Source: Halarcobacter sp. (GTDB lineage: Bacteria; Campylobacterota; Campylobacteria; Campylobacterales; Arcobacteraceae). From it: 64,000 nt of DNA. Below are positions 8,770 through 27,588 of the stretch, one piece after another (position 1 is the stretch's first letter; every line of letters begins with the position of its first letter). Below the pieces are notes generated by a model. That model saw only the letters and a program-made list of their open reading frames with translations. It was not told the DNA's origin and made no database searches. The stretch spans positions 3,550,514 through 3,614,513 of the forward strand of contig CP182352.1 of the NCBI GenBank assembly GCA_048571215.1, written 5' to 3'. Made by a program: the position numbers and the translations under genes.

Positions 8770-10218
8770 ATGATTGTATTAAATAATAGTGAAATTGAAG
8801 AAGCAACAAAAGGGACTTGGATAAATAAAATTGATGAATTAGATATAAAAAGAGTAATATTTAGTAGTACAAAAATTCAAAATTCAGATTTTTATTTCCC
8901 ATACAATCAAGAAAAATTTCTAGAAGACAGTGAAGAAAATATCAATTTAATAAATAGAGTATTTAAAAAAGGTGCTATTGCTATAGCTTTACCTAAAAAT
9001 TCCAAAATAAAAATTGACAAACCAACCCTTCTTGTTGATCATTTAAGAGATTCTTTTAGAGATTTAGCATTAGCTTCTACTAATAAAACCCAAGCAACAA
9101 AAATTTTAGTAACTGGTTCCTATGGAAAAACAGGATTTAAAAATCAACTTTATACTTTGATAAATGAGTTTAAAAACACTTTTACTTTTTTAGATTCTGC
9201 AAATAAAAGTCTTCCTATATATAAAACTTTAAGTTCAATTCCTAGTGATTGTGAAGTTGCTATAGTTGAAGTTGCTGCTCCTGGCTATGAGATATCAAAA
9301 AAAAGAGCCAATTATGTGAAACCAGATATTGCAGTTATAACAAATATTGGGCCTGAACATTTAAGACAACATGGTGGTAGTATTGAAAATGTTATTGAGA
9401 ATAAATCAAGAGTTGCATATGGACTTAAAGATAATGGTTTGATAATAATTCCTAACCAAAAAGAATATAATACAAAAGAAAAAATGACTAAGTATATCCA
9501 TGAGATAAACCCTACACTAGAAATATTGAGTTTTGGAGAAGATAGTGATAATAATGCATATATTTTAGAAAAAAACTTTTTAGATGTAGGATGGAATTTA
9601 AAAATAAAAATAAATGATAAAGAAATAGATTTTACACTACCTTTTTTAGAAGAGTATTCAGTAAAAGCAACTTTACCTATTTTATTAGTTTGTGATTACT
9701 TAGATTTAGATTTAAAGCAGATTGTTACAAAATATAAAAACTATACACACTTTGCAAGTAGTGGAAACTTTTATAAGGTAACTTCATATGAAAAAACCTT
9801 TTATCTTTATGATCAAAGTATTAGGGGAATATTAGATGGATTCAAAGAGACTTTAAAAGTAATTAGTCAAATGAAACCTCAAAAAAAGGGAAAGAAAATA
9901 GCACTTTTTTCTGAGTTTATAAATTTTGATGAGAGTTCGGTTGATGTTGTTAATTTGGATGAGTTTAAACTTTTGTTTAAAAATTCAGGTTTAAAATCAT
10001 TATTTACAATCAATAAGTTTTGTGAGCATATAAATGTATTGCATGATAAATCAATATGGAAAGAGCATAGATTTAGTATAAATGATATTATGGATAAAGT
10101 TATAGCTGATATAGAAGATGATGATATGCTTTTTATTCGTGCGACTCAAGAAAGTAAAGCAGACACTTTAGTAAAAAATATCTTGGATAATGCAAGTAGT
10201 GTAGAACAATATTATTAA
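8770..10218 (+). CDS. Divergent MurF-like Mur ligase family protein
   Basis: VTGSYGKTG P-loop, PDIAVITNIGPEH, three-domain MurF-like layout; paralog of 6339 and 17306. Confidence 0.8.
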   Translation: MIVLNNSEIEEATKGTWINKIDELDIKRVIFSSTKIQNSDFYFPYNQEKFLEDSEENINLINRVFKKGAIAIALPKNSKIKIDKPTLLVDHLRDSFRDLALASTNKTQATKILVTGSYGKTGFKNQLYTLINEFKNTFTFLDSANKSLPIYKTLSSIPSDCEVAIVEVAAPGYEISKKRANYVKPDIAVITNIGPEHLRQHGGSIENVIENKSRVAYGLKDNGLIIIPNQKEYNTKEKMTKYIHEINPTLEILSFGEDSDNNAYILEKNFLDVGWNLKIKINDKEIDFTLPFLEEYSVKATLPILLVCDYLDLDLKQIVTKYKNYTHFASSGNFYKVTSYEKTFYLYDQSIRGILDGFKETLKVISQMKPQKKGKKIALFSEFINFDESSVDVVNLDEFKLLFKNSGLKSLFTINKFCEHINVLHDKSIWKEHRFSINDIMDKVIADIEDDDMLFIRATQESKADTLVKNILDNASSVEQYY

Positions 10219-10236: not shown

Positions 10237-10992
10237 ATGATTAATATAATAACAAACCCTTTTTTAAAAAAAAGATATTTTTCCGACTTTTCAAATGAAT
10301 ATATTATAAAAAGTAATACTAGTTTGAGTGGAGCAATTTTATTAATGTTTAGTCTAACAGTAGTTTCATTTGTATTCTTTTGGATATTTTCAAATGAACT
10401 ACTTATAAACAGTACTCCTATAGCTATAGAAAATGTAAAGAATTTTTCTTTTGTAAGTGGAGTGATCTCTTTTATTATAGCTTTTTTTGCATATTATAAG
10501 CCAGGATTATCTCCAATCTTAGCACCCTTATATGCAGTTTTTTCGGGTATTTTTATCTCAGGTCTGAGTTTTGCTGCAGAACAAAAGTTTCCAGGTATTG
10601 CAATGCTAACTGCTGAAGTTACTTTAACAACTTTTATTATTGTTTATATTGGATATAAGATTGGTATTATTAAAGTAACACAAAAATTTAAATCTATAGT
10701 TTATTCACTTATTGGGATTATATCATTTTTGTATTTATTGAGTTTCATCTTAATGCTTTTTAATACCACTATCCCTTTGATTCACGAAGCAGGTATAGGT
10801 GGAGTAATATGGACTTTTTTTATTATGGCTACAGCTTCATTTCATCTTGCAATAGATATAGATAAGGTAGAAAAATCTAATACTAACAAAGGGTATGAAA
10901 ACTGGAACTTAGCTTTAGGATTAATGGTATCTTTGATATGGCTTTATTTTTCAACTTTAAGATTTTTATCTCGAATTAAGAGTCTAAAATAG
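10237..10992 (+). CDS. Bax inhibitor-1/YccA family membrane protein
   Basis: About 7 hydrophobic segments; APLYA, FPGI, IKVTQKF and ALGLMVSLIWLY fit the bacterial BaxI_1 family. Confidence 0.8.
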   Translation: MINIITNPFLKKRYFSDFSNEYIIKSNTSLSGAILLMFSLTVVSFVFFWIFSNELLINSTPIAIENVKNFSFVSGVISFIIAFFAYYKPGLSPILAPLYAVFSGIFISGLSFAAEQKFPGIAMLTAEVTLTTFIIVYIGYKIGIIKVTQKFKSIVYSLIGIISFLYLLSFILMLFNTTIPLIHEAGIGGVIWTFFIMATASFHLAIDIDKVEKSNTNKGYENWNLALGLMVSLIWLYFSTLRFLSRIKSLK

Positions 10993-11069: not shown

Positions 11070-12773
11070 ATGCAAATATTATTTTTGACAGATCAAAATA
11101 TTAATGAAAAATATTCTAAAGTTATTTTACAATATAACAAAGCACTTACTCAAAATATCTTATTAGTTAATTATTCTTCCCTATATGAAAAACAAAAGTT
11201 TATTTATGCAAAAGAGTGTATGGTATTAAATAAAGAGGAAGTGCTTACTGACGTACTTCTTTCCCCATCTATTGTTATTGATTTAAGTCAAACTTTAGAA
11301 TATACAATTTTAGAAAAATATTTAAAAACATGTTGGGTAAATGTACAACAAGCATTTTTCCAAAAAGATGAAGCAAAACAAAACTCCATTGGAAGCATAG
11401 AATCTTCTGCAAAAGTATCAAATTGTATTTGTTATACCAATAATAATGAAGCACCAATATTAAAAGTTATTGAAGATAGTATTAATTTATCTTCAGACAA
11501 TAAAATATTAAGCCCTTTTAACACAATTGGATTAATCGAACAAGCTATTACTGAATTTTTTGCAGATATAAATTATTTTAGTCAATTTGAGTGGCCTAGA
11601 AATAAGGATATTTCAAATCATCAAAGTACAGTATTCTTTGTACAATTTGAAGTTTTTGAAAGATTTGGTGATTTTATAGTAGAAAATATTCAATATCAAT
11701 CTTTAAATTATGAACAACTCATATCTTATAATAATCATTTTCTTTTTAAATATATTGATGATTTATTAGACTTTAGACTTGATAGGTATATCCAACAAGT
11801 AAAATTTAGAACACATATTATAAAGCTTTGTGAAAAATATAAAATAGATTTAGAACCTTCATATTATAAAACTTTTGTACTTACCAAAGATAATCATATT
11901 GGACTACAACGTAGATATTATGGATCACTTAATAGTAAAAGAGGTATAAATATTATAAATGATAAACATAAGACTAATACTTTTTTAAGAGAAAATGGTT
12001 TTAATGCTAACTTATCTTATGAATATACACTAAAGCAATTACTTGAAGAGGAAGTAATTGATAATTTGCCAATTGATTATCCCCTAACTTTAAAACCTAC
12101 GGATAAAAAAGAGGGTTATGGGGTTGTAACTAATATTCCCAATAAAAAGCGTATGAAAATCTCTATCAAAAAAATGTTAAACTTAGAGGATATCAATTCA
12201 GTTTTAATTGAAGAGTTTTTTGAGGGTGTAACCTATCGAGTATTAGTTGTTAGTGGTGAAGTTACGGCAGTACTTAAATATATCCCAGCATCTATTTTAG
12301 GAGATGGAGAGAGTAGTATTGAAGAGCTTATAAAAAATAAAAATCTTATTTCTAAGTCAAGAGTAAGGATAAATAATGCTCTTAGATTAAGTATTTTTAA
12401 TGATGAAAAAAGATGGGAAACTGTATTACCTGAAGGGAAGAAATATATTATAAGTCATAATTCCCATGCATCAAATGGGGGACAATCAATAAATGTTACT
12501 AATCTTTTTGATGAAAAGTATAAAAAAGTTTGTTCTCAAGCATGTAAAAGCTTAGGATTGAAAATGGCAGGTATCGATATGATAGTAAACTCAGCTGGAG
12601 ATTATAGAATTATTGAGATAAATTGTGGTCCTGCTTTGGCAACACATGTTAATCCTAAACATGGCTCTTCTATTAAAACATATACAAAAGTCTTATATTC
12701 ACTGTTAGAAGAGGTGGATATTGAAAAAGATGAAAATAGTTATCTAAAAGATTTAGTACCATATCATAAATAA
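11070..12773 (+). CDS. ATP-grasp amide ligase (cyanophycin synthetase/GshF-like) with uncharacterised N-terminal domain
   Basis: DKHKT, LKPTDKKEGYGVVTN, IEEFFEG, YRVLVV, GDGESSIEELI, SNGG, GIDM, EINCGP. Confidence 0.8.
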   Translation: MQILFLTDQNINEKYSKVILQYNKALTQNILLVNYSSLYEKQKFIYAKECMVLNKEEVLTDVLLSPSIVIDLSQTLEYTILEKYLKTCWVNVQQAFFQKDEAKQNSIGSIESSAKVSNCICYTNNNEAPILKVIEDSINLSSDNKILSPFNTIGLIEQAITEFFADINYFSQFEWPRNKDISNHQSTVFFVQFEVFERFGDFIVENIQYQSLNYEQLISYNNHFLFKYIDDLLDFRLDRYIQQVKFRTHIIKLCEKYKIDLEPSYYKTFVLTKDNHIGLQRRYYGSLNSKRGINIINDKHKTNTFLRENGFNANLSYEYTLKQLLEEEVIDNLPIDYPLTLKPTDKKEGYGVVTNIPNKKRMKISIKKMLNLEDINSVLIEEFFEGVTYRVLVVSGEVTAVLKYIPASILGDGESSIEELIKNKNLISKSRVRINNALRLSIFNDEKRWETVLPEGKKYIISHNSHASNGGQSINVTNLFDEKYKKVCSQACKSLGLKMAGIDMIVNSAGDYRIIEINCGPALATHVNPKHGSSIKTYTKVLYSLLEEVDIEKDENSYLKDLVPYHK

Positions 12774-12797
12774 GTAAGAAAGGATAAAATAAAAATT

Positions 12798-13748
12798 ATG
12801 AGTAAATTAAATATATTAAAAGAGTTTGATCATCGACAGTTATTCCGTTTCTTTGTAGATGGGCGTTTATATGTAAAAGAAAATGGTTGGGAAGGTTATG
12901 AAAGTAGACAACCTGGATGCATAAAAGGGATGAGCCTATCTTATGCCCATATGGTTAATAACTTTGAATTAAAAGATGGTTTAACTTTGGAATATATATC
13001 TAAATTACATGACCTTACATTTTATAATATTGAAAAAAAATTACGTAGAAATCGTTACCCTGGTGAGATTAGAGAGTTTAGAATTAGTTTTCTTGTTAAA
13101 CCTGTTATTACAAAGGGTGGTATAGCAGAGTTAATGGGAGATAGAACAGTTGTTGATGCTTTTAAAAAGGGTATAAGAGGGTGTAATACTGCAGAAGATA
13201 TATATAATGCTATTATGGCTGGGAAAAAAATCCGTTATATTTCAGAAGTTGGTTATTTAACACCAGAATTAAATCAAGCATCTTTGGATAGAGAGCCAAA
13301 AGATTTATATCTTAAAGCAAGAGCACAAGTTAAAAAGAATATTACAGAAAAAACATTACAACTTATTAATGAGTATAATGAAAAAATCAATACTTTAGAG
13401 GAAGAAGAGAAAATCTATTTTATTGTAGATGTAATTAAAAGATTAGAAAGATTACACCCTTTTGTTGATGGAAATATTCGTGTATTTGTTACTATTTTAC
13501 TAAACCATTTATTGATGTTAAATGATTTTTATCCAGCTATTTTTGAAGAACCAAGTGTTTTTGATGCTTATACAACAAAGGAGATAGTAGAAGAGGTTAA
13601 AAAGGGGCAAGAGTTAGTTAAACAATTGATTGATAATCCAGAGAGTAGAGTATTTGGACATTCAATAACTGATGAAAGTGAAGAAAACATTTCAACAATT
13701 TGTGAGTTGATGTCTGAATTTTCAGAAGCAATAAAAAATCATAATTAA
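12798..13748 (+). CDS. Stand-alone Fic protein, AnkX-like (putative CDP-aminoalcohol-dependent phosphotransferase)
   Basis: Fic motif HPFVDGNIRVF. N-terminal FVDGRLYVKENGWEGYESRQPGC and C-terminal LLNHLLM...PAIFEEPSVFDAY resemble my recollection of the AnkX catalytic region. Confidence 0.8.
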   Translation: MSKLNILKEFDHRQLFRFFVDGRLYVKENGWEGYESRQPGCIKGMSLSYAHMVNNFELKDGLTLEYISKLHDLTFYNIEKKLRRNRYPGEIREFRISFLVKPVITKGGIAELMGDRTVVDAFKKGIRGCNTAEDIYNAIMAGKKIRYISEVGYLTPELNQASLDREPKDLYLKARAQVKKNITEKTLQLINEYNEKINTLEEEEKIYFIVDVIKRLERLHPFVDGNIRVFVTILLNHLLMLNDFYPAIFEEPSVFDAYTTKEIVEEVKKGQELVKQLIDNPESRVFGHSITDESEENISTICELMSEFSEAIKNHN

Positions 13749-13754
13749 TCAAAC

Positions 13755-15434
13755 ATGCAAATTTTATTTTTAGTTGAAGATAAAGAAAATTTATGGGAAG
13801 AGTCTCGTATTAAATTAGAGCCCCTTTTAAAATATAATAAGTCTTTATCTCAAAATATTTTATTATCAGATTGTGCTTATATTTCTAATGGTTTTTCAAG
13901 TAAATGTTTAGTCGTAAATACAAACGAGATGAAAAAACTTGTAATGTTATCACCCTCTTTGATTGTAAATCTTTATAATAAAAAATCTCAATTGGATATT
14001 GAAGCATATTTTCGTGTCAAATGGCCTAGTGCACAAATAGTTTGTTGGAATAAAAAATATTTAGATAAAAGATATTTTGATAATTTTATAGATGAAAAAG
14101 ATATTATAGAATCTATAGCATATACAACAAATTTAGAAGCACCAAAATTTAAATTACTTAGTAAAACTGTTAAAGATGAAGATTTTATTGGTCTTATTGA
14201 GCAAGCAGTAACTGAGTATTTCTCAGATAGAAACTTTTACAAATCTTTTAAATTACTTCAAACAAGTAAGATTTTAAAAAACCGTAGTATTATCTTTAAA
14301 TTTCAATATAAAATTATAAAAGAAAATGCTGATTATACTATTAAAATCAATTCTGTATCTTTACTTAGTTTTTTTGATTTAGTTGAATTGGATATAAATT
14401 ATGTTTATGAGTATTTTGATGAGGTATTAGATTTTAGATATAAATATTATATAGAACAAGTTAAATTAAGACAATATATAGATGATTTATGTAAAAAGCA
14501 TAATATTAATCTTGAACCCTCAATTTTTAGAACTTTTGTTTTATCAAAAGATGATAAATTAGGATTACATAGACCATATTTTGGTGGAGTTAATGACTTA
14601 GAAGGTATAAAAACAATTAATGATAAACATTTAACGAATGTTATTTTAAAAGAGAAAGGGTTTAAAACAAATATCTCTTATGAATATTCATTAGATGAAC
14701 TCAATAATGAAAAAGTTATTGAAGAGATTCCTTTGGAGTATCCATTGGTTTTAAAACCAACAGATAAGAAAAAAGGATATGGTGTAGTAACAAATATTTT
14801 AAATCCAGAAAAAATGCTTTTTTCAGTTAAGGAACTAATGAAACTAGGAGATATAAAACCTGTTTTAATTGAAGAGTTTTTTGTTGGTATGACATATCGT
14901 GTTTTAGTAGTTGCAGAAGAGGTAATTGCTGTACTTAAATTTATGCCTACTTATATTGTAGGAAATGGAAAATTAACTATTAAAGAGTTGATACTATCAA
15001 AAAATATACTTTTAAGATCTCGTATTCGTATAAATGATGCCTTAGAGTTGAATCTTTTAAATGATGGGTATAATTATAGTACAATATTAGAAAATGGTCA
15101 TAAATATATTCTTAGTCATAACTCTCATGCTTCAATGGGTGGACAAGCTACTAATGTAACTGATATATTTAGTGATGAATTAAAACAAATATCATGTGAA
15201 GTTACTAAAAGTTTAGGTTTAACACATACAGGAATAGATATGAATGTAAATGCTCAAGGAGATTATCGTATATTAGAAGTTAATTGTGCTCCAGCATTAT
15301 CATCACATTTATATCCTAAATATGGAACATCAATTGATACTTATAGCAAAGTTTTAGAAGCTTTTTTTACTCATACTGACTTACAAAGAGTAGAAAATAA
15401 ATATCTTCCCGAAATGTTTAAATATCATAAGTAA
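13755..15434 (+). CDS. ATP-grasp amide ligase, paralog of 11070..12773
   Basis: LKPTDKKKGYGVVTN, IEEFF, YRVLVV, SHNSHASMGG, GIDM, EVNCAP. Same MQILFL start and YHK end as its paralog. Confidence 0.8.
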   Translation: MQILFLVEDKENLWEESRIKLEPLLKYNKSLSQNILLSDCAYISNGFSSKCLVVNTNEMKKLVMLSPSLIVNLYNKKSQLDIEAYFRVKWPSAQIVCWNKKYLDKRYFDNFIDEKDIIESIAYTTNLEAPKFKLLSKTVKDEDFIGLIEQAVTEYFSDRNFYKSFKLLQTSKILKNRSIIFKFQYKIIKENADYTIKINSVSLLSFFDLVELDINYVYEYFDEVLDFRYKYYIEQVKLRQYIDDLCKKHNINLEPSIFRTFVLSKDDKLGLHRPYFGGVNDLEGIKTINDKHLTNVILKEKGFKTNISYEYSLDELNNEKVIEEIPLEYPLVLKPTDKKKGYGVVTNILNPEKMLFSVKELMKLGDIKPVLIEEFFVGMTYRVLVVAEEVIAVLKFMPTYIVGNGKLTIKELILSKNILLRSRIRINDALELNLLNDGYNYSTILENGHKYILSHNSHASMGGQATNVTDIFSDELKQISCEVTKSLGLTHTGIDMNVNAQGDYRILEVNCAPALSSHLYPKYGTSIDTYSKVLEAFFTHTDLQRVENKYLPEMFKYHK

Positions 15435-15468
15435 GTAAATCAAGAAGATAAAAAAGGAGAACTGTAAT

Positions 15469-17274
15469 ATGCAAGCACTAATACTAGCAGCAGGTACAGG
15501 GAGTAGATTAGGTAAATATACAAAAGAAAATACTAAATGTATGTTAGAAGTTAATGGTGAAACTTTAATTAATCAAGCTCTAGCTAAATTAAATAATGTA
15601 GGTATAAAAAAACTAATAATGGTTGTTGGGTATAAAAAAGATAATCTAATTGAACATGTAGGAAATAGATATAAAAATATTGAAATTGAATATATAGAAA
15701 ATCCAATTTATAGTACTACAAACAATATTTATTCTTTGTATTTAGCTAAAGATAAGTTAGCGCAAGATGATACTATATTATTAGAAAGTGATTTACTTTT
15801 TGAAGAAAAAATTCTTTTGAATTTAATAAATGATAAAAGAAAGTCATTGGCAGTAGTGGATAAGTATCAGGCTTGGATGGATGGAACAGCTGTTACCTTG
15901 AGTGATAATGATGATATTTTAGGTTTTTATGGTAAAAAAGCATTTCAGTTTAAAAATGTTGATAAATATTATAAAACAGTAAATATTTATAAATTTTCAA
16001 AAGAGTTTTCTTTAGATGTATATATCCCTTTTTTAGAAGCATATTCAAAGGCAATGGGTGACAATGAATATTATGAATCTGTATTAAGAGTAGTTTTAAT
16101 GCTAGAAGACCAAGAGTTAAAAGCTTTAAAACTTAATGGTGAAAAATGGTATGAGATTGATGATGTACAAGATAAAGCAAATGCAGAAGTAATATTCTCT
16201 AAAAATGCAAAAGATAAATTAAAATTGATTCAAAGTAGATATGGGGGTTATTGGAAGTTTCCAGAGTTAAAAGATTTTTGTTATTTAGTTAATCCATATT
16301 TTCCAACTTTTAAAATGCAAGAGGAGATGAAAGCATATTTTTATGAACTTCTTTCTCAATATCCATCAGGGCAATCAACACTAAGACTTCTTGCTGGGAA
16401 AATGTTTAAAGTAGAGGCTGAAAATATTTTAGTTGGAAATGGAGCATCAGAGATAATAAGAGGCTTAGGAAATGCAATTGAGGGAACTTTTGGTTTAGCT
16501 TTTCCAACATTTAATGAATATCCTGAAAGTCTAGGTTATAATAGAATAGTTAAATTTATGCCAAAAAATGACCAATTTTCTTATGATATAAATGATATGA
16601 TGAATCTAGCTAATAATTGTGACAATCTATTATTAATCAATCCTGACAATCCAAGTGGTAATTTTATATCAAAAGATTTTTTATTAGAGCTTGTAGAAAA
16701 ACTTCAAAAAATAAATAAGAATTTAATTTTAGATGAGTCTTTTGTTGATTTTTCAACACAAGGTGAAAAAGAGACTATGATTACACAAAAAATAATAGAT
16801 AGATATCCTAATTTAATAGTTATAAAAAGTATATCAAAAAGTTATGGAGTTCCAGGTATAAGACTTGGAGTTGTAGCAACATCAAATATGAAAATTATGT
16901 CAGCACTAGAAAAAGAAGTAACTATATGGAACATTAATTCTTATGGTGAATTTTTCTTACAAATTATTGGAAAATATAAAAAAGATTATAATGCAAGTTG
17001 TGAAGAGATTTCCATGGAAAGAGATAGATTTTATATTAAACTTCAAGAAATCTCCTATCTAAAAGTTGTCTCTTCTCAGGCGAATTATTTTTTACTACAT
17101 GTAAGTGATAAATTTACAGCAACTGAACTCACTGAGTTATTATTATATAAATATGAAATTTATATAAAAGACTTGACAGGAAAAATTGGTTTTGAAGATA
17201 AACAATGTATACGAATAGCTGTAAGAAGTTATGAAGATAATGAGTTTTTAATTGATAGATTAAAAGAGTTATAA
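15469..17274 (+). CDS. LicC-like cytidylyltransferase fused to a class I/II PLP-dependent (CobD/HisC-like) enzyme
   Basis: N-terminal ALILAAGTGSRL...K, ENPIYSTTNNIYSLYLA and WYEIDD. C-terminal GNGASE, NPDNPSG, DESFVDF, KSISKSYGVPGIRLG and IRIAVR. Confidence 0.85.
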   Translation: MQALILAAGTGSRLGKYTKENTKCMLEVNGETLINQALAKLNNVGIKKLIMVVGYKKDNLIEHVGNRYKNIEIEYIENPIYSTTNNIYSLYLAKDKLAQDDTILLESDLLFEEKILLNLINDKRKSLAVVDKYQAWMDGTAVTLSDNDDILGFYGKKAFQFKNVDKYYKTVNIYKFSKEFSLDVYIPFLEAYSKAMGDNEYYESVLRVVLMLEDQELKALKLNGEKWYEIDDVQDKANAEVIFSKNAKDKLKLIQSRYGGYWKFPELKDFCYLVNPYFPTFKMQEEMKAYFYELLSQYPSGQSTLRLLAGKMFKVEAENILVGNGASEIIRGLGNAIEGTFGLAFPTFNEYPESLGYNRIVKFMPKNDQFSYDINDMMNLANNCDNLLLINPDNPSGNFISKDFLLELVEKLQKINKNLILDESFVDFSTQGEKETMITQKIIDRYPNLIVIKSISKSYGVPGIRLGVVATSNMKIMSALEKEVTIWNINSYGEFFLQIIGKYKKDYNASCEEISMERDRFYIKLQEISYLKVVSSQANYFLLHVSDKFTATELTELLLYKYEIYIKDLTGKIGFEDKQCIRIAVRSYEDNEFLIDRLKEL

Positions 17275-17305: not shown

Positions 17306-18757
17306 ATGGACGATAGAGTGATGTTATTAAACTCAGATGATATAGCACAAATCACTGGTGGGGAATGGTTTAATTTAAATGAAACAATAAAGTTTCATGG
17401 AATTAGAGTGAATATTAAACGTTTAGAAAAAAATGATATATGCTTTTGTACAAATCCTGAACAATGGGGTAAAAAGATTGTTAACTCAGAAAAATCGCTT
17501 CAGAAGATTTTTGAAAGAGGAGCTAGTGCAGCTGTAATTGTAAATAAAGAACTTGTAAATAGTATAAAAAAACCATTATTATTAGTTGAAAATAGTAAAA
17601 AAGCTTTAGAAGATATAGCTTTTTATGTTAGAGATAATATTAATATTCCTAGAGTTTTAGTTACTGGTACAGAAGGTAAAACAGGTTTTAAAAATCAAAT
17701 TTATTCACTATTGTCAAGACAGATTAATGTACATGCCAAACTCGATAGTTCAAATTTAAATGTACCTATAATGTGCTCTTTGGCAAGTTTATCGGAGAAT
17801 GATAAAGTAGAAATTTTAGAAGCATCTGTTGCAGGTCCAAATGTTGGTGTGACTAGAAGCAATATAGTAAAACCAGATATATGTGTAATAACACAAGTTG
17901 GTATTGCCCATATTACTACTCATGGTTCAGTTGATAATATGATTGAAAATAAAGCATCAATAATAGATGCCCTTAAGAAAGATGGTATTTGTATTGTAAA
18001 TGCAGATAGTGATAATTATGATAAATTAAGAGAAGCTATATATAGAAGAAAATATGTTGATATCAAAACCTTTGGAAGTAGTTCTAAATGTAATGCTAGG
18101 ATAATTGAATCTTCATTTGATAAAAAAGAACTTTTATGGAATGTAAAAGCTAATATAGAGGGGATAGAACTAGAGTATAAAGTTCCTTTATTGGGTGATT
18201 ATGTTCCTGTTGCTAGTTTAATACCTTTACTTACGATTCATTATTTAGGCTATGATGTAAAAAAAGCTGCAGCTGATTTTATATATTTTAAAAGTATGGA
18301 TACTATGGGTGGATTGAGTGAAATTGTTTGTAAAGATAAAACATTTAGATTTTTTGATCATTCTCATAGGGGTTCACTTTTAGGTTATAGCTCTGCTTTA
18401 AAAGATTTTGCTTATATGCATCCTAAAAAAAATGGTAAAAAGATTGCAGTTATTGGAAATATGATGAATATAGGAAAAATATCAAAAAAAGCTCATGCTG
18501 ATTTAGTACCTTTAATAGAAGAAGCAAAAGTTGAAAGATTATATACCGTAGGTAAATTTGCAAAACCAATACATGAAAAACTTAAAGATAAATCAATTTT
18601 AATAAATCATGCAGATAAATATCAAGATATAGAAAAACAAATTTTAGCAGATATAGATGATGGCGATGTAATTTTTATGAAAGGTAATCATAGAATTTGG
18701 TTAAAAGAACTTGCTGCAAAGATATATGATATGGGAGAACGACATGCGATCAGATGA
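17306..18757 (+). CDS. MurF-like Mur ligase family protein
   Basis: VTGTEGKTG, PDICVITQVGIAH, IAVIGNMMNIG (cf. MurF VLGDMLELG), DVIFMKG. Confidence 0.8.
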   Translation: MDDRVMLLNSDDIAQITGGEWFNLNETIKFHGIRVNIKRLEKNDICFCTNPEQWGKKIVNSEKSLQKIFERGASAAVIVNKELVNSIKKPLLLVENSKKALEDIAFYVRDNINIPRVLVTGTEGKTGFKNQIYSLLSRQINVHAKLDSSNLNVPIMCSLASLSENDKVEILEASVAGPNVGVTRSNIVKPDICVITQVGIAHITTHGSVDNMIENKASIIDALKKDGICIVNADSDNYDKLREAIYRRKYVDIKTFGSSSKCNARIIESSFDKKELLWNVKANIEGIELEYKVPLLGDYVPVASLIPLLTIHYLGYDVKKAAADFIYFKSMDTMGGLSEIVCKDKTFRFFDHSHRGSLLGYSSALKDFAYMHPKKNGKKIAVIGNMMNIGKISKKAHADLVPLIEEAKVERLYTVGKFAKPIHEKLKDKSILINHADKYQDIEKQILADIDDGDVIFMKGNHRIWLKELAAKIYDMGERHAIR

Positions 18758-19823
18758 TAATGTAGATATTTTCTTTTTAGGAGATACGTATTTTGGCGAA
18801 TGGCATATGAGACTTCGTGGAAGAAAAGGGCAGTCTAATATTTTAGAGGAAAAAGGTTATTTACATTTTGGTAAAAATTTTGAAGAAATACTAAGTGATG
18901 GTGATGAGGTTCTTATGAATTTAGAATGTACTATTACCGAAATAGAACCATCACCTTTGAAAGGTACTGAAAAAAAACATCTTTATTCTGCAAGAGCAGA
19001 AGGAACAATTTCAGCACTTAAAAAGTTAAATATAACCACATGTATTTTAGCAAATAATCATGCGGTAGATTATGGTAAGGCTGGACTTATTGATACTATT
19101 ACAAATTTAGAAGAAGCTGGTATTAAATATATTGGAGGAGGTAGAAATGAAGCAGAAGCAGCGGCTCCACTAATATTTCAAAAAAAACTAGGTGATAAAA
19201 AATTCAAAGCAGCTATAGTATCAACATACAATTATGGTGTAGCATCTGATAGATATGGATTTTATGCAAAGGGTGATATCCCAGGAGTTAATAGAAAAAA
19301 TTTATCAAAAATTACAGAACAAATTAAAAAAATAAAAGCAAAAGACAATGATATAATGTATATTTTGTCTCCCCATTGGGGACCAAATTATGTATGGAGA
19401 ACTTTTACTCAACAAAAACAAGGTGAAGAATTTATAAGATCAGGTGTTGATTTAATAGTTGGACATAGTGCCCATATGATTCAGGAAGTTGAATATTATA
19501 AAGATAGACTTATAATATATAGTATAGGTAATTTTCTTATAAATGGTAATGGTGAATATAAAAGAAGAAGATTGCCACCTTATAGTTTTATAGCAAGATT
19601 GAATGTGCAAAATATTGATAATACTTTTGTTAAAAAGATCTATTTATATCCTATATTTGTTGATAATATGGCAAGTGATTTTACCCCTAGATTTGTAGAT
19701 AAAAAAGAGTTTATTCATGTAAAAGATATATTAAGAAGTCATGAAATAAGTACAGATATATTTGATAATACAGTAATTTTAGGTCAAGATAAGTTTGGAT
19801 ATTTTTTAGAATATGAAATTTAA
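18744..19823 (+). CDS. CapA/PgsA-family calcineurin-like metallophosphoesterase, apparently soluble
   Basis: GDTYFGE, NLEC, LANNHAVDYG, HWG, GHSAH and YSIGNF motifs. ATG at 18744 after GGAG is preferred over the track start 18711. Confidence 0.85.
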   Translation: MRSDDNVDIFFLGDTYFGEWHMRLRGRKGQSNILEEKGYLHFGKNFEEILSDGDEVLMNLECTITEIEPSPLKGTEKKHLYSARAEGTISALKKLNITTCILANNHAVDYGKAGLIDTITNLEEAGIKYIGGGRNEAEAAAPLIFQKKLGDKKFKAAIVSTYNYGVASDRYGFYAKGDIPGVNRKNLSKITEQIKKIKAKDNDIMYILSPHWGPNYVWRTFTQQKQGEEFIRSGVDLIVGHSAHMIQEVEYYKDRLIIYSIGNFLINGNGEYKRRRLPPYSFIARLNVQNIDNTFVKKIYLYPIFVDNMASDFTPRFVDKKEFIHVKDILRSHEISTDIFDNTVILGQDKFGYFLEYEI

Positions 19824-19896: not shown

Positions 19897-22800
19897 ATGA
19901 TTAAGCTAATAATTAGACACACAAATGCTGAGATTGAAGAAAAAGTTGTTGAAGATGGTATGAAGTTTCAACCATTGGAAGGTGAACAATTCTACTTCAT
20001 AGGTTCTGATGGTTATACATTTACTTTATCAGGGAATGAATCTACAGTAAATCTTTCTTTAATGGATGGTAATGAAAGAGTTAGTGTAAGTCTTGATAAC
20101 ATGGCAGATTTAATAAAAGCTAATAATCCTGGAGATGCATTTGCTTTAACTACAGCACTAGGGGTGTCTTCAACTCCGGATGGTGCAGCTGAAATAGAAC
20201 AAGCATTAGCAGACCCAAATTTAGAATCAGCACAAATTATAGATGTATTAAAAGAGAATTTATCAGAAAGTACTGTTGCAGAAAATGATGGTGCAATTAT
20301 TGATAACTTTGGTTCATTGGCAGAAGCTCTTGATGCAGCTGCAGCAGGTGCAATACAGAGTGATCCGACTTTATTTATAGACGAAACTAGAGGGCAAGAA
20401 GAAACTCCAGCAGATACGGAGAGAGGTGAACGAATCGAGACTGATACCGACACGGATACTGATACAGATACAGATACTGACACGGATACAGATACCGATA
20501 CTGATACCGACACAGATACGGACACGGACACAGATACAGACACGGATACTGATACAGACACTGACACAGACACTGATACAGATACTGACACGGATACAGA
20601 TACCGACACAGACACTGATACAGATACTGATACCGACACCGACACTGACACCGATACTGATACAGACACAGATACAGACACGGACACAGACACGGACACA
20701 GACACGGACACAGACACGGATACAGACACGGATACCGATACCGACACTGACACCGATACTGATACAGACACCGATACAGATACTGATACAGACACTGATA
20801 CAGACACTGATACCGACACAGACACGGATACAGATACTGATACCGACACTGACACAGACACTGATACAGATACAGACACCGATACTGATACTGATACCGA
20901 TACTGACACAGACACGGATACAGATACTGATACCGATACTGATACCGACACGGATACAGATACTGATACCGATACTGATACCGACACGGATACTGACACA
21001 GACACCGATACAGACACTGATACAGATACAGACACCGATACTGATACTGATACCGACACAGATACTGACACAGACACGGATACAGATACTGATACCGACA
21101 CGGATACAGATACTGATACTGACACGGATACAGACACCGATACTGATACCGATACCGACACTGATACCGATACAGACACAGATACAGATACTGACACAGA
21201 CACTGATACTGATACAGACACTGATACTGATACTGATACCGACACGGATACAGATACGGACACTGACACAGACACGGACACGGACACTGATACAGATACT
21301 GACACAGACACTGATACCGACACGGATACAGACACGGATACAGATACGGATACAGATACTGATACTGATACAGATACTGACACGGATACAGATACCGACA
21401 CGGACACAGACACTGATACAGATACTGACACGGACACTGATACAGATACTGACACAGACACTGATACAGATACAGATACAGATACCGACACTGACACAGA
21501 TACAGATACAGATACTGATACAGATACAGATACAGATACTGATACAGACACGGATACAGATACTGATACCGACACGGATACAGACACGGATACAGATACA
21601 GACACGGATACAGATACTGATACTGATACAGATACTGACACGGATACAGATACCGACACGGACACAGACACTGATACAGATACTGACACGGATACAGATA
21701 CTGATACCGACACTGACACAGATACAGACACCGATACTGATACAGACTCTGATTCAGACAGTGATACCGATTCGGATTCAGACTCTGACACCGATAGTGA
21801 TAGTGACTCAGACACTGATTCAGATACCGACAGTGATAGTGATTCAGACACAGACTCTGACTCAGACAGTGATACGGATTCTGATAGTGACTCAGATTCT
21901 GATTCGGATAGTGATTCAGACTCAGATAGTGACTCTGATTCAGATACTGACACGGATACGGACACAGATACCGACACAGACACTGATACGGACGCAGACA
22001 CTGACACAGACACTGACACGGATACAGATACAGATACGGACACAGACTCTGACTCAGATAGCGATACCGATAGTGATAGTGACTCAGACACAGACAGTGA
22101 TACAGATTCAGACACAGATTCGGATAGCGACTCAGATACAGACTCTGATTCAGACAGTGATACCGATTCGGATTCAGACTCTGACACCGATAGTGATAGT
22201 GACTCAGACACTGATTCAGATACCGACAGTGATAGTGATTCAGACACAGACTCTGACTCAGACAGTGATACGGATTCTGATAGTGACTCAGATTCTGATT
22301 CGGATAGTGATTCAGACTCAGATAGTGACTCTGATTCAGATACTGACACGGATACGGACACAGATACCGACACAGACACTGATACTGATACGGACACAGA
22401 CACTGATACCGACACAGACACTGATACGGACACAGACACTGATACCGACACAGACACGGATACCGATACTGATACGGACACAGATACGGACACAGACACT
22501 GATACAGACACAGACACTGACACGGATACAGATACAGATACGGACACAGACTCTGACTCAGATAGCGATACCGATAGTGATAGTGACTCAGACACAGACA
22601 GTGATACAGATTCAGACACAGATTCGGATAGCGACTCAGATACAGACTCTGATTCAGACAGTGATACCGATTCGGATTCAGACTCTGACACCGATAGTGA
22701 TAGTGACTCAGACACTGATTCAGATACCGACAGTGATAGTGATTCAGACACAGACTCTGACTCAGACAGTGATACGGATTCTGATAGTGACTCAGATTCT

Positions 22801-25800
22801 GATTCGGATAGTGATTCAGACTCAGATAGTGACTCTGATTCAGATACTGACACGGATACGGACACAGATACCGACACAGACACTGATACTGATACGGACA
22901 CAGACACTGATACCGACACAGACACTGATACTGATACTGATACGGACACAGACACTGATACCGACACAGACACGGATACCGATACTGATACGGACACAGA
23001 CACTGATACGGACACAGACACTGATACAGACACAGACACGGATACAGATACGGACACAGACTCTGACTCAGATAGTGATAGTGACTCAGACACAGACAGT
23101 GATACAGATTCAGACACAGATTCGGATAGCGACTCAGATACAGACTCTGATTCAGACAGTGATACCGATTCGGATTCAGACTCTGACACCGATAGTGATA
23201 GTGACTCAGACACTGATTCAGATACCGACAGTGACAGTGATTCAGACACAGACTCTGACTCAGACAGTGATACGGATTCTGATAGTGACTCAGATTCTGA
23301 TTCGGATAGTGATTCAGACTCAGATAGTGACTCTGATTCAGATACTGACACGGATACGGACACAGATACCGACACAGACACTGATACTGATACTGATACG
23401 GACACAGACACTGATACCGACACAGACACTGATACTGATACTGATACGGACACAGACACTGATACCGACACAGACACGGATACCGATACTGATACGGACA
23501 CAGACACTGATACGGACACAGACACTGATACAGACACAGACACGGATACAGATACGGACACAGACTCTGACTCAGATAGTGATAGTGACTCAGACACAGA
23601 CAGTGATACAGATTCAGACACAGATTCGGATAGCGACTCAGATACAGACTCTGATTCAGACAGTGATACCGATTCGGATTCAGACTCTGACACCGATAGT
23701 GATAGTGACTCAGACACTGATTCAGATACCGACAGTGATAGTGATTCAGACACAGACTCTGACTCAGACAGTGATACGGATTCTGATAGTGACTCAGATT
23801 CTGATTCGGATAGTGATTCAGACTCAGATAGTGACTCTGATTCAGATACTGACACGGATACGGACACAGATACCGACACAGACACTGATACTGATACGGA
23901 CACAGATACTGATACTGATACGGACACAGACACTGATACCGACACAGACACTGATACCGACACAGACACTGATACCGACACAGACACGGATACCGATACT
24001 GATACGGACACAGATACGGACACAGACACTGATACAGACACAGACACTGACACGGATACAGATACAGATACAGATACGGACACAGACTCTGACTCAGATA
24101 GCGATACCGATAGTGATAGTGACTCAGACACAGACAGTGATACAGATTCAGACACAGATTCGGATAGCGACTCAGATACAGACTCTGATTCAGACAGTGA
24201 TACCGATTCGGATTCAGACTCTGACACCGATAGTGATAGTGACTCAGACACTGATTCAGATACCGACAGTGACAGTGATTCAGACACAGACTCTGACTCA
24301 GACAGTGATACGGATTCTGATAGTGACTCAGATTCTGATTCGGATAGTGATTCAGACTCAGATAGTGACTCTGATTCAGATACTGACACGGATACGGACA
24401 CAGATACCGACACAGACACTGATACTGATACTGATACTGATACGGACACAGACACTGATACCGACACAGACACTGATACTGATACTGATACGGACACAGA
24501 CACTGATACCGACACAGACACGGATACCGATACTGATACGGACACAGACACTGATACGGACACAGACACTGATACAGACACAGACACGGATACAGATACG
24601 GACACAGACTCTGACTCAGATAGTGATAGTGACTCAGACACAGACAGTGATACAGATTCAGACACAGATTCGGATAGCGACTCAGATACAGACTCTGATT
24701 CAGACAGTGATACCGATTCGGATTCAGACTCTGACACCGATAGTGATAGTGACTCAGACACTGATTCAGATACCGACAGTGATAGTGATTCAGACACAGA
24801 CTCTGACTCAGACAGTGATACGGATTCTGATAGTGACTCAGATTCTGATTCGGATAGTGATTCAGACTCAGATAGTGACTCTGATTCAGATACTGACACG
24901 GATACGGACACAGATACCGACACAGACACTGATACTGATACGGACACAGATACTGATACTGATACGGACACAGACACTGATACCGACACAGACACTGATA
25001 CCGACACAGACACTGATACGGACACAGACACTGATACCGACACAGACACGGATACCGATACTGATACGGACACAGATACGGACACAGACACTGATACAGA
25101 CACAGACACTGACACGGATACAGATACAGATACGGACACAGACTCTGACTCAGATAGCGATACCGATAGTGATAGTGACTCAGACACAGACAGTGATACA
25201 GATTCAGACACAGATTCGGATAGCGACTCAGATACAGACTCTGATTCAGACAGTGATACCGATTCGGATTCAGACTCTGACACCGATAGTGATAGTGACT
25301 CAGACACTGATTCAGATACCGACAGTGATAGTGATTCAGACACAGACTCTGACTCAGACAGTGATACGGATTCTGATAGTGACTCAGATTCTGATTCGGA
25401 TAGTGATTCAGACTCAGATAGTGACTCTGATTCAGATACTGACACGGATACGGACACAGATACCGACACAGACACTGATACTGATACGGACACAGACACT
25501 GATACCGACACAGACACTGATACTGATACTGATACGGACACAGACACTGATACCGACACAGACACGGATACCGATACTGATACGGACACAGACACTGATA
25601 CGGACACAGACACTGATACAGACACAGACACGGATACAGATACGGACACAGACTCTGACTCAGATAGTGATAGTGACTCAGACACAGACAGTGATACAGA
25701 TTCAGACACAGATTCGGATAGCGACTCAGATACAGACTCTGATTCAGACAGTGATACCGATTCGGATTCAGACTCTGACACCGATAGTGATAGTGACTCA

Positions 25801-27588
25801 GACACTGATTCAGATACCGACAGTGACAGTGATTCAGACACAGACTCTGACTCAGACAGTGATACGGATTCTGATACCGATTCAGATTCAGATAGTGACA
25901 CCGATTCTGATAGCGATAGTGACACAGATTCAGATTGTGATACAGATGTTGATGCAGATAAACCAATTGCAGATATTGAAGTTGAGTATGAAAAAACAGT
26001 TACCGTAAATGAAGTTTGTTCTACTTCACAAAATCTAGGTAATTTAGCTGCTTATTTAGATGGTATGAATAATGTAAATGCAAATGAAGTTGTTGATTTA
26101 GCAAAAGATCAAAATGGTAACCCACAACAAGATCAATACAACTTAGAATTGACTTCATTTGGAGATGGAGATTTAGCATTATATGATAATGAATCTAATC
26201 AAAATGAAACTAGAGATATCAATGATATTGATTTAAATGATGTTACACCATTTGATCCATCAAATGCAGAAGTAGTAAATAACACCATAAATCATACATA
26301 CAATATGACATCAAATGAAGTTATTTTTGAAGGTGATATTGTTCAAAATGGTAATGTAATAGGAACATCAGACAATGATGTGATTATTGTAAAAGGTGAG
26401 GTTCAAGGTGGTTCAAATGTTAATGCAGGTGCTGGAAATGACCTTATTGCAATAGTAGGAAATATTGGAGAAAATCAACCAGCAATTGATGGGGATAGTG
26501 GTACAGACATACTATATCTAAGTAAACCTGCATCTAATTATGAGTTTTTAGATATCCACTTCCATGACAATTTAGATGGACATATTTTAGATAAAGAGAC
26601 TCAAAGTGTATTAACATTTAATAACATAGAAGGAATTGCCTTTGGTGATGGTTCTGGGGTAAATTGTAAAGTAAATACATCAACAAGCTATCAATACAAT
26701 GTAAGTATAAGTGCTGCATTAACTGATATTGATGGAAGTGAAACTTTATCTGTAGCAATATCTGGAGTGCCAAATGGTGCTACACTATCAAGTGATACCT
26801 ATACATTAATTGATAATGGAAATGGAAATTGGACAGTTGAAGTACCAAATGGAGATGTATCTATAGTTGATGATATTACTATGAATGTTCCATCAGATAT
26901 AGGAGATTTTAACCTTGAAATAACAGCAAGAGCAACTGAAATCAATGATAATGATGGTACTGATTATGCAGAAACAACAGATAGTGATTTTGTAACTGAT
27001 GATATCGATCCAGATACAGAAATCAATAAATTTGACTTAGTAGGAAATGTAACTACTGGTTCAGGAGATGATACAATTAATGTGTCAGATGATATATTCT
27101 TAGCTAATGTTGATACTGGAGCAGGAGATGATACAATCAATGTAGGAGATGATATAGGATTATTTACTTCAATAGATACCGGAGCAGGAGATGATACAAT
27201 TAATATTGGTGACAATATTAGTTATTCAGCTCAAATTGATATGGGTGATGGTATTGATACCCTAAGTTTAGATGATGATATTGATTTATCTGATATAGCA
27301 AAAAATGTTGATAATGTTGAAATAATTGATTTGGATAATGATGAAGACCAAGATCTAGAAATAGATTTAGATTCAATTATCGATTTAACTGATGATGATA
27401 ATGATTTAGTTGTTATTGGTGATAATGGTGACAAAATTGACTTTAATGATTCTGGTTGGGAAAAAGGCGATAGCACAAAAACTGTTGATGGACAAGATGG
27501 AGAGTTTACTGAATACACAAATACAAACAATCCAAATGTATCAATTTTAATTGATAATGACATTGACGTAGATGATGATGACATTTAA
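19897..27588 (+). CDS. Giant T1SS-secreted RTX-type surface protein/adhesin with about 920 Asp-Thr/Asp-Ser dipeptides
   Basis: No Sec signal. N-terminal ~180 aa includes EALDAAAAG. (DT)n/(DS)n tract; Ig/cadherin-like [10 protein letters not shown]...[12 protein letters not shown]-like GAGNDLI, GSGDDTI, GAGDDTI x2, GDGIDTL; acidic T1SS-type C-terminus; adjacent T1SS genes. Confidence 0.88.
20443..25956 (+). repeat. Coding hexamer repeat GAY-ACN/TCN/AGY with ~0.4-0.55 kb higher-order units
   Basis: Pure Asp-Thr from 20443 to 21744 (about 217 units), then alternating DS-rich and DT-rich blocks. A shared junction recurs at 21943, 22339, 22843, 23341, 23845, 24379, 24889 and 25435. Confidence 0.95.

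Follow-up and report, generated by a model that had tools for sequence, protein, structure and literature searches.

A cytidylyltransferase-PLP fusion encoded with an AnkX-like Fic protein beside a Thr-Asp repeat adhesin in Halarcobacter is a candidate CDP-ethanolamine synthase

Gene content of the adhesin locus

The window analyzed here is a stretch of 64,000 nucleotides (genome positions 3,550,514 to 3,614,513) from a marine bacterium, Halarcobacter sp., referred to below as the host. The genes described in this section all lie on the plus strand. A conserved 600-aa domain that belongs to no Pfam family is fused to a Ser/Thr kinase and Sel1 repeats (positions 2309 to 5377); downstream are a MurF-like ligase fused to a DUF2156/LPG_synthase_C domain (6339 to 8741), another MurF-like ligase (8770 to 10218), and a BaxI-family membrane protein (10237 to 10992). 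Next comes an AnkX-like Fic protein of 316 aa (12798 to 13748), flanked upstream by a cyanophycin-synthetase-like ATP-grasp ligase (11070 to 12773) and downstream by a further ATP-grasp ligase (13755 to 15434). Beyond the fusion gene that is our subject (15469 to 17274) are a MurF-like ligase (17306 to 18757), a CapA/PGA_cap-family protein (18711 to 19823), a giant RTX-like protein of 2563 aa with Thr-Asp and Ser-Asp repeats, which is the predicted acceptor (19897 to 27588), and type I secretion genes for an outer-membrane efflux protein, a C39-ABC transporter, and HlyD (29239 to 34567). A first-pass annotation of this DNA had reported a Fic enzyme and amide ligases near the fusion; both are there, the amide-ligase genes numbering five.

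The ORF at 15469 to 17274 is a real gene, which starts with ATG 9 nt downstream of a Shine-Dalgarno sequence (AAGGAG, 15454 to 15459) and encodes 601 aa. Scans for promoters (95 sites versus 108.7 expected) and terminators (5 versus 3.1 expected) did not rise above chance. Residues 1 to ∼245 (15469 to 16203) form a LicC/PntC-type nucleotidyltransferase domain and residues 263 to 600 (16255 to 17268) a CobD-type PLP domain. The Pfam matches were NTP_transf_3 (residues 3 to 122, E = 1.2e-11), NTP_transferase (residues 3 to 115, E = 1e-10), and Aminotran_1_2 (residues 309 to 598, E = 3.9e-30); together with the NCBIfam and PDB matches given below, they bear out the earlier view that LicC-like and CobD/HisC-like domains share one ORF. 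When residue conservation was assessed in 32 diverse family members with 30 to 82% identity, A8, G9, G11, R13, D108, D422, E423, K567, and R582 were invariant in all 32, and K23, E106, Y202, E203, K457, and R465 were conserved in at least 90%.

The two domains of the fusion and their relatives

The best solved relative of the N-terminal domain is Tde1415, the PntC-AEPT protein of Treponema denticola (PDB 6PD1/6PD2), whose PntC entry 6PD1 matched residues 2 to 212 with 59.5 bits (E = 3.6e-15); LicC (1JYK) matched residues 2 to 112 with 53.2 bits (E = 3e-13). The GXG(T/S)R...K nucleotide-binding signature of LicC/PntC-type enzymes (PF12804/PF00483) is present as A8, G9, G11, R13, and K23, with Thr, not Pro, preceding the signature Lys; the signature and the role of this Lys are described in PMC6697681. 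In alignment, E106 falls on Glu104 of Tde-PntC, the residue that touches the aminoethylphosphonate primary amine; LicC has Asp at that position. The significant match to solved LicC/PntC places the domain in this type, and CTP-dependent activation of a phospho- or phosphono-amine is predicted from the homology. Like the fusion, Tde1415 joins a LicC-like cytidylyltransferase to a PLP enzyme, and it makes a cytidine-activated 2-aminoethyl-P compound; its PLP partner, however, is a class V aminotransferase that acts on phosphonoacetaldehyde, whereas the fusion has a class I/II, CobD-type decarboxylase-like domain.

A second counterpart is FrbH, from the FR-900098 pathway of Streptomyces rubellomurinus. 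As described in PMC6697681 and PMC8007912, FrbH has the build of the fusion, an N-terminal PF12804 cytidylyltransferase and then an aminotransferase-fold PLP decarboxylase in one chain, and turns an amino acid that carries a phosphate or phosphonate group into an amine linked to CMP, CMP-3-aminopropylphosphonate; the likeness is one of described domain build and reaction. FrbH differs in its substrate, 2-amino-4-phosphonobutyrate, and in serving an antibiotic pathway, whereas the host lacks a phosphonate source and the context of the fusion suggests protein decoration. A phosphonate reading for the window was rejected: the PF13714 match in the host genome is isocitrate-lyase-like (30% identical to true Ppm, over partial length only), and Ppd had no match there.

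For the C-terminal domain, the best NCBIfam model was CobD (TIGR01140; 164.7 bits over residues 263 to 598). Assignment as a CobD equivalog was rejected, since the score lies under the cut-off of 290.55 and no cobamide-gene neighbors of the fusion were found in the window. Assignment as HisC, an activity that the first-pass annotation had named as contrary to its proposal, was rejected as well: hisC scored 143.8 bits against a cut-off of 276.55, and a separate HisC (345 bits) is encoded elsewhere in the genome. A CobD-like gene also adjoins CbiB at 1.267 Mb (227.6 bits); with these separate genes in the host, a cobamide or histidine role for the fusion was rejected. In the PDB, the C-terminal half matched 6OUX with 180 bits, CobD (1LC5) with 89, and named HisC chains with 40 to 65.

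We take the telling residues of CobD to be the Schiff-base Lys, the Asp at the pyridine nitrogen, two basic phosphate-binding residues, and a Phe where aminotransferases have Tyr. All have counterparts in the fusion, as in a CobD-type PLP decarboxylase: K457 aligns with the Schiff-base Lys216, D422 with D185, and F425 with F188, and K567 and R582 sit at the positions of Arg323 and Arg337, with Lys at 567 in place of the Arg of CobD and 6OUX. The fusion, the host CobD, and the SMUL_1544-like protein share the Phe within DESF (D422-E-S-F425 in the fusion), and the host HisC and another aminotransferase have Tyr where the fusion has Phe425.

We placed the PLP domain in a tree of 46 sequences, including fusions, stand-alone Campylobacterota proteins, and the host CobD and HisC. 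A clade of 43 leaves (SH support, 0.84) unites the fusions with five stand-alone Campylobacterota proteins and L011, a protein identical to 6OUX, leaving the host CobD and HisC outside. The stand-alone group (support, 1.0) is sister to a fusion subclade (0.97), and deeper nodes are weakly supported (0.35 to 0.40). The norcobamide protein SMUL_1544 (PDB 6OUX) presumably acts on L-serine phosphate. Around the stand-alone genes, a HAD phosphatase adjoins the hit in all four loci examined (of five), an ATP-grasp protein occurs in two of the four, and a HisC-like aminotransferase occurs in one (L014), whose gene order matches Cj1437-Cj1436-Cj1435. The identity of L014 to L018 with Cj1436 was assigned by neighboring genes, with the full order in L014 only, and not through a named sequence. 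Cj1436, from the Campylobacter jejuni capsule locus, decarboxylates L-serine phosphate to ethanolamine phosphate, which the ATP-grasp enzyme Cj1438 joins to a carboxylate (PMC11800397). Cj1436 and SMUL_1544, the closest relatives of the PLP domain, differ from the fusion in that each stands alone and gives a product that is consumed as the free phosphate ester rather than in CDP-activated form. The tree thus supports placing the PLP domain of the fusion with L-serine-phosphate decarboxylases (6OUX/SMUL_1544-like and Cj1436-like), apart from the host CobD and HisC. CDP-ethanolamine, CDP-aminopropanol, and CDP-serinol had all been put forward as products; membership in this clade narrows the candidates toward CDP-ethanolamine, which would be the likely product.

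The Fic protein and the module in other genomes

AnkX-type transfer of phospho-head groups is known as a trick that Legionella plays on the Rab proteins of its own hosts. AnkX of Legionella pneumophila uses CDP-choline, accepts CDP-ethanolamine, and transfers phosphocholine or phosphoethanolamine to a serine. The Fic protein of the window (motif HPFVDGNIR, His220) matched the NCBIfam model T4SS_AnkX with 112.6 bits over residues 4 to 295, far under the full-length cut-off of 1400, and AnkX in the PDB with 99.5 bits. The PDB match comprises two stretches (residues 5 to 98 with AnkX 12 to 107 and residues 178 to 279 with AnkX 186 to 288) and includes the region N-terminal to the Fic core. The motif His and AnkX D265 are kept, with Ile in the motif where AnkX has Gly. 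The catalytic-His motif and the AnkX-specific N-terminal region are therefore both present, and they support the view that this protein is an AnkX-like phospho-head-group transferase. Unlike AnkX, it has 316 aa, lacks ankyrin repeats, does not lie in an injected-effector context, and is encoded with its own putative donor synthase next to the gene for a bacterial secreted adhesin. Homology and the occurrence of donor-pathway genes in the window and in two other genomes, G401 and G065, suggest that it draws on a CDP-linked donor.

The system recalls the Lic pathway (LicA-LicC-LicD), in which a LicC-type enzyme makes a CDP-activated phospho-head group, but the host system lacks the kinase and uptake steps, a decarboxylase would provide the phospho-amine, and Fic would stand in place of LicD. 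That the window holds neither LicA nor LicD, as initially stated, was confirmed: in the whole genome, the sole LicA match (PF01633) is at 777,599, outside the window, and LicD (PF04991) gave only a weak match at 2,281,827 (26.4 bits, 39 of 227 positions), which is part of an 889-aa TPR/ATP-grasp protein. Four LicD proteins from related loci, used as tblastn queries, gave no match, and no credible, full-length LicD was found in the host genome or in G401. An EamA-family transporter is encoded at 42451 to 43326, amid arsenic-resistance genes.

Members of the fusion family occur widely, as a rule next to LicD in glycan loci; LicD lies at most four genes away in 53 of 75 family loci. Of the 80 loci of the family in genomes, 79 lack Fic and 1 has it; hence, the fusion is not tied to Fic in general. 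Some relatives are fused to, or precede, methyltransferases. De novo CDP-choline synthesis in the host was rejected because this methyltransferase family has no homologue in its genome; the methyltransferase of G401 is unrelated to the family. The dehydrogenase-fusion-LicD cassette of Bacteroidales resembles the pneumococcal gtp1-3 set, which gives a possible lead to CDP-2-glycerol. In the literature, gtp3 is called a "putative phosphotransferase." The dehydrogenase of the cassette is absent from the host genome, so this lead does not bear on it.

Closer counterparts of the whole locus exist. G401, a Sulfurimonas MAG, carries on a single contig a T1SS, a Thr-Asp protein, a 599-aa protein, a kinase, ATP-grasp, Fic, ATP-grasp, BaxI, MurF, CapA, and the fusion, which lies inside a co-directional module in two genera. 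The 600-aa part of the protein at 2309 to 5377 is 61 to 75% identical in G401, G245, and G065. In the last of these, from a sister genus, an orthologous cluster (adhesin N terminus, 37% identical; 600-aa protein, 61%) has four genes between an ATP-grasp-Fic-Mur ligase protein and the adhesin: a Ppm-cytidylyltransferase fusion, Ppd, a PntC-like nucleotidyltransferase (40% identity to residues 3 to 124 of the fusion), and a class V aminotransferase. Ppm-Ppd-PntC-aminotransferase is the CMP-aminoethylphosphonate route set out in PMC6697681, so that G065 has a nonhomologous gene set where the host has the fusion. In both G065 and G245, Fic shares a chain with ATP-grasp and/or Mur ligase domains (with both in G065), and a homologue of the MurF-like ligase at 17306 to 18757 is the fusion partner in each. 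Fic-Mur ligase proteins are about 1040 aa long. The Fic-Mur ligase module is present in G245 and G395, where neither the fusion (E ≤ 1e-30) nor Ppm was found.

In one set of 401 genomes, AnkX-like Fic occurred in 4 and (Thr-Asp)10 arrays in 6; long Thr-Asp arrays were present in 4 of 4 genomes with Fic versus 2 of 397 without it, counts that overstate independence because the genomes are kin. The gene module (600-aa protein, ATP-grasp, and Mur-type ligases) is conserved beside T1SS Thr-Asp adhesins in at least four genera. The novelty lies in the partner of the fusion, an AnkX-like Fic protein in a conserved ligase module beside such an adhesin.

Candidate product and its use

We lean toward a reading in which the fusion makes CDP-ethanolamine from L-serine phosphate and CTP and the Fic protein then modifies the Thr-Asp adhesin with phosphoethanolamine. 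Decarboxylation could come first, or cytidylylation could, as in FrbH, with CDP-serine as the intermediate. The AnkX-like Fic would transfer phosphoethanolamine from CDP-ethanolamine to Ser/Thr of a protein, presumably the neighboring Thr-Asp repeat adhesin, and the ATP-grasp and Mur-type ligases might then build on the free amine. As for the source of L-serine phosphate, the best SerC-like match in the genome scored 49.8 bits, under the cut-off. Comparative evidence favors the main proposals of the first-pass annotation: a CDP-aminoalcohol synthase, with the catalytic residues of both domains kept in 32 relatives; Fic in the role of LicD, with the CMP-aminoethylphosphonate set at the place of the fusion in G065 and no credible LicD in the host or G401; and a free amine as the ligase handle, in line with the Fic-ligase fusions of G065 and G245 and the Cj1438 precedent.

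The CDP-aminoalcohol might instead serve a glycan or lipid through an unrecognized transferase, with Fic using another nucleotide (ATP, or CDP-choline from elsewhere). The predominance of LicD over Fic as family neighbor, the Fic modules of G245 and G395 that lack the fusion, and the weak partial LicD match at 2.28 Mb are in keeping with this. We nevertheless consider it rather unlikely, given the co-directional module in two genera, the presence in G065, at this position, of another pathway to cytidine-activated aminoethyl-P, the failure to find a full LicD in the host or G401, and the extension of the AnkX match beyond the Fic core.

Decarboxylation of L-threonine phosphate, which would yield CDP-(R)-1-amino-2-propanol, appears improbable. 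CobD, the L-threonine-phosphate decarboxylase, is the best NCBIfam model, and a ThrB-like kinase beside the host CobD and CbiB could supply the substrate; however, that CobD-like gene is already in place, the PLP domain groups with 6OUX/Cj1436-like proteins, the G065 genes lead to a 2-aminoethyl and not an aminopropyl head group, and ethanolamine-to-choline chemistry would suit the methyltransferases that relatives carry as a fusion or as a following gene. Least probable, and hardly to be expected, is a transaminase that forms CDP-serinol out of DHAP or, given a source of phosphonate, CMP-aminoethylphosphonate, the latter as in the PntC-aminotransferase fusion Tde1415: the hisC score comes near that of CobD, and a 41%-identical fusion of G036 sits within a Ppm-Ppd phosphonate cluster where 20 kb showed no further aminotransferase, but the host genome has neither Ppm nor Ppd, Phe425 replaces the Tyr of both compared aminotransferases, and the HisC-like, Cj1437-type neighbor differs from the clade that holds the fusion.

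The cluster could be a cytoplasmic assembly line for a novel type of protein decoration, a wider picture that we hold only tentatively. Fic would put phosphoethanolamine (aminoethylphosphonate in the sister genus) on hundreds of Thr/Ser residues of the (Thr-Asp)n type I-secreted adhesin, and ATP-grasp, Mur-type, and DUF2156 ligases would add amino acid or peptide branches on the free amine, giving a stalk that is a teichoic acid-like zwitterionic polymer made of protein. The ligases might even work on the precursor while it is still CDP linked, much as Mur ligases use UDP-MurNAc. That an AnkX-like Fic is encoded with its own putative donor synthase and amide ligases next to an adhesin, in at least four genera, suggests that bacteria put this chemistry to housekeeping use and that Thr-Asp stalks carry a modification not described so far. 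The exchange of fusion and CMP-aminoethylphosphonate pathway at this site suggests a concrete product, CDP-ethanolamine made without a kinase, for a widespread and unstudied cytidylyltransferase-decarboxylase family, and a protein-linked use of an activated phosphonate would be the first suggested. A metagenome scan with Fic as the query returned one locus only, of 3.5 kb; Fic and fusion matches on contigs of equal size (105139 and 9949) give only a hint, and the short-Fic clusters number 31.

Domains and catalytic residues of the fusion protein

The ATG-started ORF at 15469..17274 (+) encodes a 601-residue fusion protein in which Pfam places NTP_transf_3/NTP_transferase at residues 3 to 122 and Aminotran_1_2 at residues 309 to 598, confirming the two-domain ORF of the first-pass annotation. 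The Shine-Dalgarno sequence AAGGAG lies 9 nt 5' of the ATG, and the gene belongs to a co-directional run (962 to 27588), with a gap of ∼30 nt on each side of it. Consensus scans gave neither promoter signals (95 sites versus 108.7 expected) nor terminator signals (5 versus 3.1 expected) above chance. The fusion reaches the cut-off of no curated equivalog model: in NCBIfam, CobD ranks first, with 164.7 bits (cut-off, 290.55), and hisC second, with 143.8. Among solved structures, the N-terminal half is nearest to the Tde1415 PntC domain (6PD1, 59.5 bits) and LicC (1JYK, 53.2), and the C-terminal half to 6OUX (180 bits), followed by CobD (1LC5, 89) and named HisC chains (40 to 65).

Conservation was assessed in an alignment of 32 fusion-family members with 30 to 82% identity. 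The nucleotide-binding signature (A8, G9, G11, and R13, with K23 at ≥90%) and D108 are kept, as are E106 and Y202-E203. At the position of E106, Tde-PntC has Glu104, described as touching the primary amine of that enzyme's substrate; the equivalent residue of LicC is Asp. In the PLP half, no member departs from D422, E423, K567, or R582, and ≥90% have K457. Aligned with CobD, D422, K457, and K567/R582 fall on the positions that we take to be the pyridine-N Asp, the Schiff-base Lys, and the two phosphate-binding residues. D-E-S is followed by Phe in the fusions, in the CobD-like protein of the same genome, and in an SMUL_1544-like protein, and by Tyr in the genome's own HisC and in one more aminotransferase.

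A protein from a related genome scores 769.7 bits against 6OUX over 344 residues. The 6OUX molecule bears the name "threonine phosphate decarboxylase-like enzyme," which is also that of the SMUL_1544 product. This enzyme presumably decarboxylates L-serine phosphate. SMUL_1544 is placed between CbiB and CobU in the Sulfurospirillum norcobamide cluster (Table A5 of PMC7755780). In a FastTree phylogeny of 46 PLP sequences, a 43-leaf clade unites every fusion with the SMUL_1544-like protein and five stand-alone proteins from Campylobacterota and excludes the genome's own CobD-like protein and HisC (SH support, 0.84). The stand-alone group (support, 1.0) is sister to one fusion subclade (0.97); deeper nodes are poorly supported (0.35 to 0.40). 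Four of the five stand-alone loci were inspected: a HAD phosphatase adjoins the hit in all four, ATP-grasp is found in two, and a HisC-like aminotransferase in one, whose gene order is that of C. jejuni Cj1437-Cj1436-Cj1435. In that organism, ethanolamine-P arises from L-Ser-P through the decarboxylase Cj1436 and serinol-P from DHAP through the transaminase Cj1437; either product is joined to glucuronate as an amide by the ATP-grasp enzyme Cj1438C (PMC11800397).

The Halarcobacter genome has a separate HisC (345 bits) and a separate CobD-like gene (227.6 bits) that adjoins CbiB, a ThrB-like kinase, and B12 uptake genes; therefore, the fusion is needed for neither pathway. The cobamide loop-assembly and salvage island (G000:C1, the same genome's contig, 1,265,033 to 1,273,002) comprises a ThrB-like/APH kinase, a metallophosphoesterase, a CobD-like decarboxylase, CbiB, BtuCDF-type uptake, and a TonB receptor. 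L-Thr-P may be supplied in this genome. For SerC, as a supplier of L-Ser-P, the best match in the genome (49.8 bits) is under the cut-off.

Distribution and neighbors of the fusion family

The fusion is common: at least 7998 proteins match at E ≤ 1e-10 (all 7998 candidates scored), and identity to the fusion is 70 to 100% among the 120 matches listed. A 50%-clustered library holds 611 relatives at E ≤ 1e-30, the majority of them full length among the 150 matches listed. The best 80 of 130 confirmed genome loci include eight Campylobacterota MAGs (69 to 87% identical); the others are ∼50% identical and nearly all from Bacteroidales, three having Bacillota-type names (Lachnospiraceae, Roseburia, and Erysipelotrichaceae). 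No paper on this family was found in the literature searched. The characterized FrbH has the same build of cytidylyltransferase and PLP decarboxylase (PMC6697681, PMC8007912).

Neighbors were counted, with HMMs from Pfam-checked seeds, in the 75 of these 80 loci where ORF calling recovered the fusion. LicD lies ≤4 genes away in 53 of the 75. The next gene is octopine-dehydrogenase-like in 45 loci and a ∼220-residue methyltransferase in 4, all Campylobacterota. Among six longer forms scanned, four carry a C-terminal methyltransferase (three of the same family as the ∼220-residue neighbor), one an N-terminal GT4, and one a TagF-like part. This SAM-methyltransferase, which follows the fusion or forms its C terminus (L025, L026, L030, and L031; proteins P0133, P0233, and P0234), may provide a route to CDP-choline or N-methyl-ethanolamines that needs no kinase. 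The octopine-dehydrogenase/G3P-dehydrogenase-like gene directly 3' of the fusion (e.g., 11813 to 12928 in locus L034) occurs in Bacteroidales and under some Bacillota-type names, such as Roseburia; it may form opines or act as a reductase like gtp1 of the pneumococcal CDP-2-glycerol genes. Both families are absent from the Halarcobacter genome. A 41%-identical fusion lies inside a Ppm-cytidylyltransferase/Ppd cluster (L019, G036:C1, 78 to 11159) that also encodes three APS-kinase-like proteins, a radical SAM enzyme, GNAT, and a formyltransferase, a putative phosphonate tailoring locus.

The AnkX-like Fic protein and its module

On sequence grounds, the 316-residue Fic protein (12798 to 13748) is not a generic Fic but AnkX-like. 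The AnkX model matches residues 4 to 295 (112.6 bits), and AnkX structures align over residues 5 to 98 and 178 to 279, the latter stretch holding the motif HPFVDGNIR with its catalytic His, along with the Asp located near choline in AnkX. CDP-choline is described as the AnkX donor, with CDP-ethanolamine accepted and bulky head-group substituents tolerated. Short-form AnkX-like Fic proteins are scarce (31 at E ≤ 1e-5), and no paper on one beside an adhesin was found in the literature searched. A whole-genome search upholds the observation that the window lacks LicA and LicD, LicD giving only a weak partial match distant from the window. That match, a 39-residue LicD-like motif, is in an 889-residue protein with TPR repeats and a RimK-like ATP-grasp trace (L119, G000:C1, 2,279,793 to 2,282,462), adjoined by a DUF4915 protein.

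The Fic context is found at one of the best 80 of 130 fusion loci and is missing from the other 79. That locus, in a Sulfurimonas MAG (G401), occupies one contig and runs in one direction. It comprises TolC-OmpA, OmpA, ABC transporter, and HlyD genes; a 1265-residue Thr-Asp repeat protein; a 599-residue protein, 74 to 75% identical to the N-terminal half of window ORF 2309 to 5377; a kinase and a 368-residue protein; ATP-grasp, Fic, ATP-grasp, and BaxI, in that order; and MurF, CapA, and the fusion, with one opposite-strand methyltransferase gene between BaxI and MurF. The ATP-grasp-Fic-ATP-grasp order recurs on a 3.5-kb metagenome contig.

Of 401 genomes sampled from the phylum, 4 encode an AnkX-like Fic and 6 contain (Thr-Asp)10 arrays, which are present in 4/4 Fic genomes versus 2/397 others. 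With two of the four Fic genomes in a single genus, the number of independent events is below four. Arrays in the two genomes lacking Fic (G254 and G394) are short. Within the family of G401, 11/353 genomes have Fic, which in ten heads a protein of ∼820 to 1060 residues. In G245, a 1035-residue Fic-Mur ligase (L124, G245:C4, 7287 to 10394) comes after T1SS genes and a 74%-identical 618-residue protein and before a MurF-DUF2156 protein. G065 represents a sister genus of the window's family; there, a single 1523-residue protein (L125, G065:C15, 6705 to 11276) contains an ATP-grasp, a Fic, and a Mur ligase part. These gene fusions would tie head-group transfer to amide ligation.

Donor modules and a proposed modification route

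In G065, the 1523-residue protein is followed by a Ppm-cytidylyltransferase fusion, Ppd, a PntC-like nucleotidyltransferase (40% identical to fusion residues 3 to 124), a class V aminotransferase, a histidine kinase, and a Thr-Asp protein whose N terminus is 37% identical to that of the giant adhesin in the window (19897 to 27588). The Ppm-Ppd-PntC-aminotransferase set is the CMP-aminoethylphosphonate route (PMC6697681); thus, two nonhomologous donor modules occupy the same place in one conserved system. Both would lead to a cytidine-activated 2-aminoethyl-phosph(on)ate, which for the fusion, within our best reading as a whole, is the somewhat favored product. Neither module was found in G245 or G395, another compared genome (fusion searched at E ≤ 1e-30; Ppm).

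From the observed gene content, homologies, and co-occurrences, we infer every chemical step of the following route. The fusion would convert L-Ser-P and CTP to CDP-ethanolamine; in FrbH, cytidylylation is described as preceding decarboxylation. Fic would then move phosphoethanolamine onto Ser/Thr residues in the cytoplasm, ahead of type I secretion; the likeliest acceptor is the Thr-Asp/Ser-Asp stalk. The ligases would work on the free amine or on Asp side chains. The same evidence supports the first-pass reading of a CDP-aminoalcohol synthase, with Fic in place of LicD and the amine serving amide ligases. What is new is the coupling of the fusion with both an AnkX-like Fic and a Thr-Asp adhesin.

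Other features surround these genes. The 600-residue domain at 2309 to 4108, which has no Pfam match, is 61 to 75% identical in G401, G245, and G065 and occurs always within the Fic/ligase module. In the window, it forms one protein with a Ser/Thr kinase and Sel1 repeats, and in G401 it is encoded separately, beside the kinase; the G065 copy has a weak C5-epimerase-like match. Between the adhesin and T1SS genes lie a gene for a histidine-kinase-like ATPase and, oriented divergently, one for an OmpR-type response regulator (27641 to 29129); a similar kinase gene stands ahead of the adhesin in G065. Two ankyrin-OmpA proteins (962 to 2293 and 34557 to 35915) flank the entire adhesin/modification/T1SS region.
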